Under the pieces are notes generated by a model. That model ran no database searches and was not told the origin of the DNA. It saw only the letters and a list, made by a program, of their open reading frames with translations. From an uncultured Candidatus Sumerlaeota bacterium (GTDB taxonomy: Bacteria > CAYMEV01): DNA of 64,000 nt. Positions 14,814-17,828 of the stretch are shown here, one piece after another (position 1 is the stretch's first letter; each line of letters starts with the position of its first letter). Location of the stretch: NCBI GenBank assembly GCA_964389675.1, contig CAYMEV010000012.1:39329-103328 (forward strand), written 5' to 3'. The translations under genes and the position numbers were made by a program.

Positions 14814-17800
14814 TTGATATATATCCGGAATGATGATATAAATATAATAATGGTTAAAAATGTAACAGTTGGGTTTGATAAATACAGGTTCGATAATGAG
14901 CTTCTATACAATCTTATGCCTTTCAAGATAGGCGAGATCCTTCTTATATCTTCGCTGTATGATGCATATATACTTGAGAATGAGAGGATCTTGTCAGAGC
15001 AGATCTTCGGTGAATACCATAAGCTTAATCTCAGTTCTGCACCAAAGATAACCCATGCCCCTACACTGAATTCAGCCCTTGAGATACTGAAAAAGAAGAG
15101 CTTTGACATGGTCATTGTCATGAGGAGGATTTCTGACTCCAATATATTTGAGATCGGCGAAAGGATAAAAAGGCTTGATAACAGATGCTTCATACTTCTC
15201 CTTCTTAATAACAATTCTGAAATTGCGCTTATTAAGGATAAAAAGTTCAGCTTAAGCGGTATTGATAATGTATTTGTATGGAATGGCGATTCAAAGGTGT
15301 TCCTGGCGATGATAAAGTACATTGAGGATAAGGTAAATGCTGCTAATGATACAAAAATATCAATGGCAAGGATCATTCTTCTTGTTGAAGATTCAATCAG
15401 GTATTACAGCAGGTTCCTGCCTATTCTCTATACCCAGATAGTAAAACAGACTCAGAGGCTGATTGCAGATGAAAGCCCAGATGAAATGATCAAAATACTC
15501 AGAATGAGGACAAGGCCAAAGATAATGCTTGCAAGAAATTATGAAGAAGCTGTAGAAATCATAGACAACTACAGAGAGTATCTTCTGTGCCTTATTTCGG
15601 ATGTTAAATTCCAAAGAAATGGTAATGATGATGAAGAAGCCGGAATAGACCTGATATCCTATCTCAGAAGTCTGAAAGCTGATGTCCCGACGCTTCTGCA
15701 GTCTTCAAACCCTGAGAACAGGGCTTTTGCAGAGAAACTTGAGTCAGCATTTATCTATAAGGAATCCCAGCATCTCGAGAGAGAGCTGATTGAATTCATG
15801 CTTAACAGCCTCGGCTTCGGCGATTTTATATTCAAGGATTCAAATGGCAATGAAATTGCACGTGCAAGATCAATGGAGGATTTTAAGCGCATCATTAAGA
15901 ATATCGGCATAGAATCAGTGATGTACCATGCCAGGAGAAATCATTTTTCAGCATGGCTTCTGGCAAGGGGAGAAGTCTATTACGCAAAAATTCTTCATCC
16001 CGTGAAGATAGAGGATTTTAAGAATCCAATGGACCTTAAGGCATATATTATGGATATTTTTGAAACAGCCAGGATGCACAAGACAAAAGGAAGGATAATA
16101 AGCTTTGATGAGTCTATGCTTGATCAGCACAGCCATATATTGAAGCTTTCAGGGGGTTCGCTGGGAGGGAAAGGCAGAGGGCTTGCATTTATTAATAGCA
16201 TACTCCAGAAGATCGAAAGCAACGGGCTTGTGGAAGGAATTGATGTGAAGATCCCTCTCACTACCATTATAGGGACAGACGAATTTGAATCTTTTATGGA
16301 AAAAGGCAGTTTTTCCGGCAATCCCTTCCATGAAAAGGATTTCAGCAAAATCCAGAAATCCTTTCTTGAATCTGATTTGTCATCAGAGCTTTATGCAAAA
16401 TTAAAAAGGCTGCTGAAAACGTGGAGACAGCCTCTTGCAATAAGGTCATCCGGGCTTTTTGAGGATTCCTTTTCCTTTCCCTTTGCGGGCATATATTCAA
16501 CATTTATGCTTCCCAACAATCAGAGGAGCATAGAAGAAAGGGCCCGAAAAGTATCAGACAGCATTAAACTTATATATGCATCATTATTTTCAAATTCCGC
16601 AAAATCCTATTTTAATGCAATAAATTATAATATTCAGGATGAGAAGATGGCAATTGTCTTACAGAATGTAATAGGAAGGAATTATAAAGGGGTGTTCTAC
16701 CCGCATATATCAGGAATTGCCCAGTCATATAACTATTACCCTTCATCCTATATGGGTATGGAAGATGGAGTAGCAGTATTGGCTGTGGGGCTTGGAAAAT
16801 ATGTTGTCGAAGGGGAGATAGCCTTCAGGTTCTGCCCCAGATATCCTAAGATCGATATCATTGACAAGGCAGAGCTTCTTAACCATAACCAGAAGCAATT
16901 CTATGCCATAGACATGGAAAGGGATAGAATAAACCTTATTGAAGGGGAAGGCAGCACATTAAAAGAGCTTGATATCCAGGGAGTAAGGGAAAGTTTCATA
17001 AACTATTGCGTTTCAGTTTTTGATAAAGAGAACGACAGGTTTGAAGTTGGCTATAATATGGAAGGCCCGAGGGTTGTCAACTTTGCAAATATTCTGAAGT
17101 ATAATGCAGTGCCTGTTGCAAAAGCCATAGAGGTTCTGCTTGAAATAATTAAGGAAGCAGTGGGGATAGCAGTTGAGATAGAGTTTGCAGTTGACCTGGG
17201 GGAAGATGTGTGGAAAAATAAACCTGTATTTTACATACTCCAGATTAAGCCTCTCTTTTCCAGTTTTGAAGAAGTCGCCGGGGATATACGCAGTGAGAAA
17301 ATGGAAAACCTTCTGATAAAAACCTCAAAAGCAATGGGGAATGGCATAATTGACAATATTTCTGATATAGTATGCGCGGACATTGAATCCTTCAGCATAA
17401 AAAATTCTACTGAAATGGCCTTAGAATTAGAGAGGATCAATGAAGTTTTCCAGAAGAATAATAGCAGTTATATTCTTATAGGTCCCGGCAGATGGGGAAC
17501 CAGGGACAGGTGGCTTGGAATTCCAGTGAAATGGGCGCAGATATCTAATGCAAAGGTTATTGTTGAGATAGGGATGCCGGATTTTCAGGTAGAACCATCC
17601 CTGGGTTCTCATTTTTTCTGCAATATAATTTCAATGAATGTCGGATACCTTTCAGTCCCCTATAAATCAGATAACGGCTTTTTTGATTATAACTGGCTGA
17701 AGAAAAAAAAGCCCTGTAAGGATTACAGGTACTTTAAGCATTACAGATTTGACAGGCCCCTCAGGGTAGTTCTGGATGGCAGAAGAGCTTTGTCCGTCAT

Positions 17801-17828
17801 TTATAAGGATGGCCAGGGGGCGTGCTGA
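14814..17828 (+). CDS. PEP/pyruvate-binding (PPDK-N/PEP-synthase-like ATP-grasp) domain protein with N-terminal receiver-like domains; no recognisable phospho-His swivel motif
   Basis: 1004 aa. Central SGGSLGGKGRGLAFINS and ...EIEFAVDLGEDVWKNKPVFYILQIKP bracket an ATP-grasp nucleotide-binding domain. The N-terminal ~400 aa look like two degenerate CheY-like folds. The canonical GGxTSHAAI swivel motif is absent; C-terminus has only a loose GPGRWGTRDRWLGIP. Confidence 0.55.
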   Translation: MIYIRNDDINIIMVKNVTVGFDKYRFDNELLYNLMPFKIGEILLISSLYDAYILENERILSEQIFGEYHKLNLSSAPKITHAPTLNSALEILKKKSFDMVIVMRRISDSNIFEIGERIKRLDNRCFILLLLNNNSEIALIKDKKFSLSGIDNVFVWNGDSKVFLAMIKYIEDKVNAANDTKISMARIILLVEDSIRYYSRFLPILYTQIVKQTQRLIADESPDEMIKILRMRTRPKIMLARNYEEAVEIIDNYREYLLCLISDVKFQRNGNDDEEAGIDLISYLRSLKADVPTLLQSSNPENRAFAEKLESAFIYKESQHLERELIEFMLNSLGFGDFIFKDSNGNEIARARSMEDFKRIIKNIGIESVMYHARRNHFSAWLLARGEVYYAKILHPVKIEDFKNPMDLKAYIMDIFETARMHKTKGRIISFDESMLDQHSHILKLSGGSLGGKGRGLAFINSILQKIESNGLVEGIDVKIPLTTIIGTDEFESFMEKGSFSGNPFHEKDFSKIQKSFLESDLSSELYAKLKRLLKTWRQPLAIRSSGLFEDSFSFPFAGIYSTFMLPNNQRSIEERARKVSDSIKLIYASLFSNSAKSYFNAINYNIQDEKMAIVLQNVIGRNYKGVFYPHISGIAQSYNYYPSSYMGMEDGVAVLAVGLGKYVVEGEIAFRFCPRYPKIDIIDKAELLNHNQKQFYAIDMERDRINLIEGEGSTLKELDIQGVRESFINYCVSVFDKENDRFEVGYNMEGPRVVNFANILKYNAVPVAKAIEVLLEIIKEAVGIAVEIEFAVDLGEDVWKNKPVFYILQIKPLFSSFEEVAGDIRSEKMENLLIKTSKAMGNGIIDNISDIVCADIESFSIKNSTEMALELERINEVFQKNNSSYILIGPGRWGTRDRWLGIPVKWAQISNAKVIVEIGMPDFQVEPSLGSHFFCNIISMNVGYLSVPYKSDNGFFDYNWLKKKKPCKDYRYFKHYRFDRPLRVVLDGRRALSVIYKDGQGAC

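Follow-up and report, generated by a model that had tools for sequence, protein, structure and literature searches.

A tandem-receiver, dikinase-like protein encoded beside glutamate dehydrogenase as a candidate signal-controlled switch on glutamate metabolism

We analyzed a 64,000-nucleotide stretch of DNA from an uncultured Candidatus Sumerlaeota bacterium (hereafter the window) and found at 14850..17828 of its plus strand a gene for a 992-amino-acid protein that belongs to the response regulators as well as to the PPDK_N superfamily. Its domains follow one another in the order pseudo-receiver, phosphorylatable receiver, DUF5752-like domain, ATP-grasp domain of the pyruvate phosphate dikinase (PPDK)/phosphoenolpyruvate (PEP) synthase type, and a divergent, putatively swivel-type C-terminal domain. 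Genes of this family recurrently neighbor a gene for glutamate dehydrogenase (GDH), and we consider it quite likely that the protein is an enzyme that is gated by a signal and has a functional tie to GDH; it probably serves to switch glutamate and nitrogen metabolism in response to that signal. A more specific reading, which we hold tentatively and at somewhat less than even confidence, is that of an enzymatic response regulator in which a sensor kinase gates phosphotransfer via a C-terminal carrier to GDH or to a factor controlling GDH. Direct covalent modification of GDH itself is a doubtful prospect by comparison.

The open reading frame (ORF) at 14814..17828 (plus strand), which a sequence-only reading of the window had described as encoding 1004 amino acids, is real, and every motif quoted from it is in the translation. 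That length is counted from a TTG codon, and an ATG (MVKNVTV) follows 12 codons further on at 14850. Because an identical 992-aa protein (P0001) exists in public assemblies, we judge the ATG at 14850 to be the likely true start, and residues are numbered from it throughout. Relatives carry the database labels "phosphoenolpyruvate synthase," "response regulator," "CheY-like chemotaxis protein," and "PEP/pyruvate-binding domain-containing protein." No second paralog of the protein was found within the 64-kb window, and PADLOC models gave no match that would place it in an anti-phage defense system.

In the window, an NADP-type GDH gene (13294..14673, minus strand; Pfam ELFV_dehydrog; NCBIfam PRK09414, 763 bits versus a cutoff of 536) diverges from the gene for the 992-aa protein across an AT-rich intergenic region of 176 bp (14674..14849). 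This region holds a promoter-like site ahead of gdh, TTGACT-16-TATAAT at 14715..14688 (minus strand), which is partly kept at the closest relative of the window, locus L086 (64% identity), where the divergent GDH layout is identical. No sigma-54 promoter was found within two mismatches ahead of either gdh or the 992-aa gene, and no riboswitch or other RNA was found near the locus, the window having one tRNA elsewhere. The sequence-only reading had passed over both this divergent gdh gene and the invariant histidine described below (His921, in G[ST]HFF).

When the genomic context of homologs was surveyed, the GDH gene emerged as the widely shared neighbor family. By tblastn with the window GDH, a GDH gene lay within 10 kb of the family gene in 40 of 85 loci. 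Counted over the 50 loci having at least 5 kb on both flanks, a GDH gene was within 10 kb in 26. Chance linkage would be about 1%, a rough estimate that takes 1 to 2 gdh genes per 3000 to 4000 genes and a window of ~18 genes. Clustering of neighbor families, based on our own ORF calls, likewise placed GDH in 35 loci versus 19 for the next family, and GDH was the sole family widely shared. The linkage spans Bacteroidales, Spirochaetaceae, an Ignavibacteria-type locus (L004), Cloacimonadota (L082), and the lineage of the window itself, and was also seen at L060 and L072. It takes three arrangements, i.e., divergent, co-directional upstream, and co-directional downstream. In one Spirochaetaceae locus (L002), GDH, the family gene, and a kinase gene are co-directional, with the family gene and the kinase overlapping by 4 bp, and two further Spirochaetaceae loci (L006 and L087) are likewise GDH linked. 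The linkage is not universal, as L003, L007, and L088 are without a GDH neighbor. Among the long homologs P0099 (1421 aa), P0112, P0086, and P0119, no GDH domain was found, and hence no Rosetta-stone fusion with GDH.

In many Bacteroidales loci the family is represented by two paralogs in tandem, which share 37% identity from end to end and pair with different GDH isozymes. The window protein belongs to subfamily A (GSHFFHN), whose genes diverge from GDH type 1 at 20 of 22 A-linked loci, and genes of subfamily B (GTHFFQN) immediately precede GDH type 2 at 10 of 11; at three loci (L014, L065, and L070) the whole order reads GDH1(-) A(+) B(+) GDH2(+). Because each GDH isozyme has a dedicated paralog, this pairing argues for recognition of a specific protein, and it is the strongest argument for partner-protein specificity over a shared metabolite.

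Other genes of redox and 2-oxoacid metabolism recur in these neighborhoods. Genes resembling korAB, for a 2-oxoacid:ferredoxin oxidoreductase (POR/POR_N and TPP_enzyme_C), immediately precede the tandem paralogs at L028 (5084-7947) and 18 further Bacteroidales loci, and the resulting block of kor, paralog A, paralog B, and GDH places the family genes around the 2-oxoglutarate node. A NuoE-like/NuoF-like pair and a 1212- to 1226-aa GltD-like/molybdopterin fusion stand beside the family gene and GDH, or between them, at L004/L005 (9075-15093) and L036 (12957-19313). Besides, a gene for an Fe/Mn superoxide dismutase with a twin-arginine translocation (TAT) signal separates paralog B from GDH type 2 at L067 (16101-16850) and L078 (16106-16852). 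If gdhA of Bacteroides thetaiotaomicron is BT1970, BT1971 would adjoin gdhA. BT1971 is described as a catalase in one report (PMC12596196), and oxidative-stress genes may recur beside gdh. The activity of GDH in B. thetaiotaomicron depends on a trans-acting gene or genes, according to the title of a study by Baggio and Morrison in 1996 (cited in PMC4539542); an equation of the family gene with that trans-acting gene may be spurious.

The domain anatomy was resolved with a full-length AlphaFold2 model built with 46 homologs (47 to 64% identity), which is of good quality (pLDDT 81.5, pTM 0.66), and with an alignment of 102 family members drawn from related loci, from which all conservation counts are taken. 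The first ~400 residues had been read from the sequence as two degenerate CheY-like domains. The model indeed contains two (beta-alpha)5 units, at aa 29-171 and aa 175-320, and a Foldseek search against the PDB returned, for the N-terminal half, PleD (E = 5e-8), CheB, NtrC-type regulators, and single receiver domains, so the receiver folds are supported; degeneracy applies to the first of them, whereas the second keeps its full catalytic set. The first unit (REC1, ~aa 22-172; 14913..15365, plus strand) matches Pfam Response_reg over aa 65-124 at 23.5 bits, under the cutoff of 30.2. Because Met occupies its phospho-acceptor position (residue 91; Met in 91 of the 102 relatives, with T, I, A, or H in the others), REC1 is classed from its sequence as an aspartate-less pseudo-receiver. 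In the second unit (REC2, ~aa 173-320; 15366..15809, plus strand), E180 and S285 are kept in 102/102 relatives, D251 and K304 in 101/102, and D181 in 91/102, the codon of Asp251 being 15600-15602. By these residues REC2 is a complete, nondegenerate receiver although it is barely detected by Pfam, which gave a subthreshold match to cREC_REC at aa 220-291.

REC2 and the ATP-grasp domain are joined by a strongly conserved region of ~110 aa (~aa 321-432; 15810..16145, plus strand) with the pattern LGFGxF ... YHAxRNHFSxWLxARGE and an invariant H360. We refer to it as DUF5752-like: the window protein has a subthreshold match to PF19027 (DUF5752) at aa 338-387, with 13.3 bits versus a cutoff of 23, and the homologs P0086 and P0119 score 29.3 and 23.7 bits, respectively. 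Precomputed PF19027 matches are present on many relatives.

The sequence-only reading placed a PPDK_N domain in the center of the protein, and Pfam finds it there with confidence (PF01326, aa 437-818; 16158..17303, plus strand; E = 9.6e-32, 111 bits versus a cutoff of 27). Nine residues, namely, K441 and R443 (in GGKGRG), R532, E538, D539, Q605, E776, E778, and Q798, are invariant in 102/102 relatives; we take them to be the equivalents of the nucleotide and Mg ligands of PPDK. To judge from these residues, the domain looks catalytically competent. For the ATP-grasp half, the Foldseek search retrieved rifampin phosphotransferase (RPH; 5hv1, E = 1.8e-12) and PPDK (1kbl and 1dik), the match to 5hv1 being confined to the ATP-grasp domain (429 columns).

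The remaining parts of a PEP synthase were not found. Domain mapping of the window protein with Pfam at E <= 1 detected neither the PEP-utilizers mobile domain (PF00391) nor PEP-utilizers_C (PF02896), and among 24 family C-terminal domains searched with Pfam at E <= 10, PF00391 was absent, with scattered single-member noise only. A regular expression for the canonical histidine motif, G[GS]x[TS][SC]H, matched neither the window nor any ORF of 83 related loci. The sequence-only reading was right about the lack of a GGxTSH motif, with the qualification that an invariant His921 is present in a swivel-like domain. NCBIfam PEP synthase models scored 15-54 bits against cutoffs of 598-1063, and together with the PigC/RedH and RPH models (likewise 15-54 bits, versus cutoffs of ~600-1350) they cover part of the ATP-grasp domain only; the RPH model NF041857 gave 21.7 bits versus a cutoff of 999 and aligned with aa 501-617 only. 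The whole protein had no useful match among PDB sequences (best E = 0.13). Because defining domains of the PEP synthase/PPDK and RPH families were looked for and not found, the protein stands outside both.

The C-terminal domain (aa 819-992; 17304..17825, plus strand) has no Pfam model and carries two strictly invariant signatures. The sequence-only reading had noticed here a motif loosely similar to that of the mobile domain, GPGRWGTRDRWLGIP, which is present and in which G880, R881, W882, G883, D886, G890, and P892 are invariant; this signature, GRWG..D...G.P (aa 880-892, with GRWG..D at aa 880-886 encoded by nt 17487-17507), is kept in 102/102 relatives. The other, S.G[ST]HFF.N (aa 917-925), is equally invariant (102/102) and contains His921 (codon 17610-17612). 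A profile of the domain found nothing related among PDB sequences, the best match being to an unrelated hydrolase (E = 0.27). Modeled alone, the domain reached a pLDDT of 91.8, and its structural matches, at moderate scores, were phospho-histidine swivel domains, i.e., those of maize PPDK (1vbg) and of Enzyme I N-domains (5woy, 5t12, and 2wqd), along with other swiveling beta/beta/alpha folds (aconitase domain 4, LD-carboxypeptidase, and chaperonin apical domains). Foldseek returned nothing significant for the isolated model. Because the scores are moderate and Foldseek gave no significant match, we grade the predicted swivel-type fold as suggestive.

Two registers are possible for the comparison with a canonical swivel domain. 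In the first, SLG[ST]H takes the place of GGxTSH, and the elements run as hairpin MGNG, helix, strand YILIG, short helix, strand AKVIVEI, loop SLGSH, helix, and strand GYLSV, closing with a hairpin (MDGRK..VIYK) that resembles vDG..G.vY. This order agrees with that of canonical swivel domains. Since the invariant His921 starts a helix (921-928) in the AlphaFold2 model, it would occupy in this register the helix N terminus, the place of the catalytic His. In the second register, which is that of the sequence-only reading, GPGRWG[TS]R takes the place of GGxTSH, and YILIGPGRWGTRDRWLGIPV is aligned with aIVTxxGGxTSHAAIVARELGIPAV; the catalytic His would then have been lost and its helix would now be a loop. 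The program hhalign favored the second register, with no His at the catalytic position, at a probability of 0.3% that was nonsignificant in both runs (the second with PDB sequences for three of the six swivel domains). Some PPDK_N paralogs of 781-783 aa have no receivers and resemble the family in the ATP-grasp and C-terminal domains only, and these keep GPGRWGSR and GTHFFQD. Because they retain GTHFFQD, we favor His921 as functionally central. Two such paralogs (L060, 12968-15313; L007, 13107-15458) lie directly downstream of a receiver-containing gene and have a different N terminus of ~200 aa.

A candidate for the input kinase is encoded in the window itself. The gene at 19742..21487 (minus strand) encodes a histidine kinase (Pfam HisKA and HATPase_c) that forms an operon with a sigma-54-dependent response regulator (18412..19752, minus strand). 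Just ahead of HisKA, the kinase has a sensor domain of ~117 aa (aa 206-322; ~20522-20872, minus strand; motif LPPAWQYPE) for which there was no Pfam model and no match among PDB sequences. Long-form family members (~1150 aa) begin with ~160 additional residues that are homologous to this domain, with 32% identity and E = 1e-19 to kinase residues 206-322 (BLASTP, L012). The domain is fused to the family N terminus in 52 of 89 sequences (88 loci and the window). In short-form lineages it belongs to a kinase whose gene precedes that of a sigma-54 regulator beside the family gene or GDH, as in the window and at L086, L060, and L082; the kinase/sigma-54 pair is divergent from the family gene in L060 and downstream of GDH in L082. 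Because this sensor domain shows a Rosetta-stone relation, being fused in some lineages and linked in others, the kinase at 19742..21487 is the best candidate for phosphorylating Asp251, as judged from gene organization. It presumably drives its sigma-54 regulator as well.

Taken together with the domain order, these observations suggest a mechanism in three steps. A sensor kinase, most likely that at 19742..21487, would phosphorylate Asp251. This phosphorylation may then rearrange the tandem-receiver stem in a PleD-like manner and free the catalytic half, whereupon the ATP-grasp domain would use ATP to phosphorylate a carrier residue in the C-terminal domain, for which His921 is the best candidate, and the carrier would hand the phosphoryl group on. 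Its most likely recipient is the adjacent GDH or a factor that controls it, and the outcome would be a GDH activity tuned to the sensed signal. The idea put forward in the sequence-only reading, that of a signaling-regulated dikinase-like enzyme or a kinase acting on a nonstandard substrate, is partly supported.

Several other explanations were weighed. An ordinary PEP synthase or PPDK with an attached receiver was rejected and has next to no probability left: PPDK_N is present and some relatives bear the name, but the PEP-utilizers mobile domain and the TIM barrel are missing, the scores fall far short of the equivalog cutoffs, and the protein ends ~170 aa past the ATP-grasp domain. A small-molecule phosphotransferase comparable to RPH or to flavonoid/phenolic phosphate synthetases deserves more attention, although we regard it as unlikely; here the receiver would gate ATP-dependent phosphorylation of a metabolite of the glutamate/2-oxoglutarate node, and GDH would be linked only through that metabolite. 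To our knowledge, all characterized PPDK_N enzymes besides PPDK and PEP synthase phosphorylate hydroxyls of small molecules or glucans, which fits such an enzyme, as do the best structural match (RPH, 5hv1), the conserved DUF5752-like domain as a potential ligand pocket, and the korAB-like genes upstream in 19 loci. Yet no equivalent of the rifampin-binding or TIM-barrel substrate domain was detected in the protein, and the pairing of A with GDH1 and B with GDH2 is hard to square with one shared metabolite.

It is improbable, in our estimation, that the protein is instead a noncovalent regulator or nucleotide sensor with a decayed swivel domain; its ATP-grasp domain would then sense the energy state by binding ATP or AMP, its receiver would read a two-component signal, and control of GDH or another target would come about by binding. 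The loss of the canonical catalytic His motif would agree with this, as would the register preferred by hhalign, which puts no His at the catalytic position, and the enrichment of aspartate-less receivers in REC-PPDK architectures reported by Maule et al. (PMC4395418). Against it, REC2 is a complete receiver, and the invariance of the ATP/Mg ligands together with GRWG..D and S.G[ST]HFF.N in 102/102 relatives is a pattern typical of catalysis. A self-contained phosphorelay, in which the ATP-grasp domain would phosphorylate His921 and His921 the protein's own Asp251, so that the protein were a noncanonical histidine kinase fused to its receiver, has very little probability. In its favor, a single polypeptide contains both a His and an acceptor Asp that are invariant, together with an ATP-grasp domain of the type that phosphorylates His, and many loci are without an adjacent histidine kinase. 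However, no output domain would remain, several lineages have a canonical kinase in genetic linkage, and the long forms have their own sensor N-terminal to the receivers, which is the usual input-to-output order; besides, the receiver-less paralogs retain His921, so this His is not there to serve the receiver. Phosphotransfer from ATP through the C-terminal carrier to GDH or a GDH-controlling factor is the reading that we retain.

The family is large and is conserved at full length across phyla. A degenerate-pattern scan with one genome per species found relatives in at least 596 species genomes, from which 80 loci were kept, and a profile of the C-terminal domain matched 2102 of 1.84 billion representatives of 50%-identity clusters, 553 of them at E <= 1e-30. 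Among the 150 matches listed, full-length proteins have the domain at their C-terminal end and at a distance compatible with the ATP-grasp domain; many other matches are short fragments, and a few are long proteins with the domain in an internal position. In three proteins of 1520-1650 aa (P0124, P0135, and P0147), the profile matches two stretches, the first at ~residues 413-588, and each of these proteins may have arisen by fusion of a receiver-containing paralog with a receiver-less one. We found no published work on the function of the family, on DUF5752, or on a GDH link in a literature search.

Elsewhere in the neighborhood, the 992-aa gene is convergent with a small Cys-rich gene, as the sequence-only reading had stated of a sigma-54 target gene. 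A perfect TGGCACACATTTTGCA at 18254..18239 (minus strand) is the only perfect sigma-54 promoter nearby, and it is followed by a ribosome-binding site and an ATG at 18199; promoter and gene (18199 to 17864) together occupy 17864..18254 (minus strand). The 132-aa ORF listed for this gene begins too early relative to that ATG. The 112-aa product has two repeats of the form GLCATCxNxxTC...HCE[ED][FY] and no match among Pfam, NCBIfam, or PADLOC models. It is 64% identical in L086, where the sigma-54 regulator is also linked to the family gene, as it is in L060 and L082, and the small gene adjoins the sigma-54 regulator in L060 as well. Directly downstream of the kinase/sigma-54 operon lies a cluster of CheD, CheC, and CheA genes (21584..24642, minus strand), the synteny of which is kept in L086. 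On the other side, phosphofructokinase-family and DHH-family genes (10725..13125, minus strand) lie downstream of gdh and, together with ftsH (8903..10717), are syntenic in L086.

Compared with known systems, the protein combines familiar parts in a different way. It lacks the rifampin-binding domain and the GGxxSH/TH histidine motif of RPH (5hv1), and two receivers and a DUF5752-like domain stand ahead of its ATP-grasp domain. It also differs from PPDK and PEP synthase in having neither the TIM barrel nor PF00391, with equivalog scores short by >10-fold. With PleD it shares tandem receivers, one phosphorylatable and one degenerate, ahead of an enzyme domain, but the pseudo-receiver comes first here, and in place of a GGDEF cyclase the output is a phosphotransferase-like module of the ATP-grasp type. 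The REC-PPDK architecture has been noted in response-regulator censuses (Galperin et al.; Maule et al. 2015, PMC4395418), the latter counting PPDK among the effector domains enriched with aspartate-less receivers. The census passages on REC-PPDK list the architecture, with no function, GDH linkage, paralog pairing, sensor fusion, or His-motif analysis given in those passages. Thus, the architecture is already on record, and the family is a variant within the known PPDK_N superfamily; what is new here is the conserved, paralog-specific coupling to GDH and the sensor fusion, which together allow a testable hypothesis, signal-controlled regulation of GDH, to be put forward for an orphan enzyme.

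GDH is a junction of carbon and nitrogen metabolism, and covalent regulators of central metabolic enzymes are exemplified by AceK, which acts on isocitrate dehydrogenase, and GlnE, which acts on glutamine synthetase. The likeness is one of analogy, i.e., a dedicated large ATP-using enzyme encoded beside one carbon-nitrogen branch-point enzyme that it targets; there is no kinship in sequence or fold, and the action of the present family on GDH is suggested by gene context only. In anaerobes such as Bacteroidales and spirochaetes, GDH is not known to have a regulator of its own that acts covalently or is driven by a two-component system. Reversible inactivation of GDH in vivo has reportedly been observed in Bacteroides fragilis. 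A bolder proposal, to which we give a rather low probability, is that the family constitutes an unrecognized class of posttranslational GDH regulators, namely, dikinase-type enzymes fused to a response regulator or sensor, with one paralog per isozyme and covalent action via a His921 carrier. If true, this would amount to an AceK/GlnE-like switch at the glutamate/2-oxoglutarate node in Bacteroidota, Spirochaetota, Cloacimonadota, and relatives, and it might account for older reports of trans-acting GDH control in Bacteroides. Should the link prove to be no more than metabolic, the family would still be among the larger uncharacterized families of enzymatic response regulators. If the coupling to GDH is functional, the family would represent a new output class for two-component signaling and a new form of dikinase chemistry whose carrier domain is devoid of the canonical His motif, and it would offer a testable candidate for the control of GDH in gut and sediment anaerobes.

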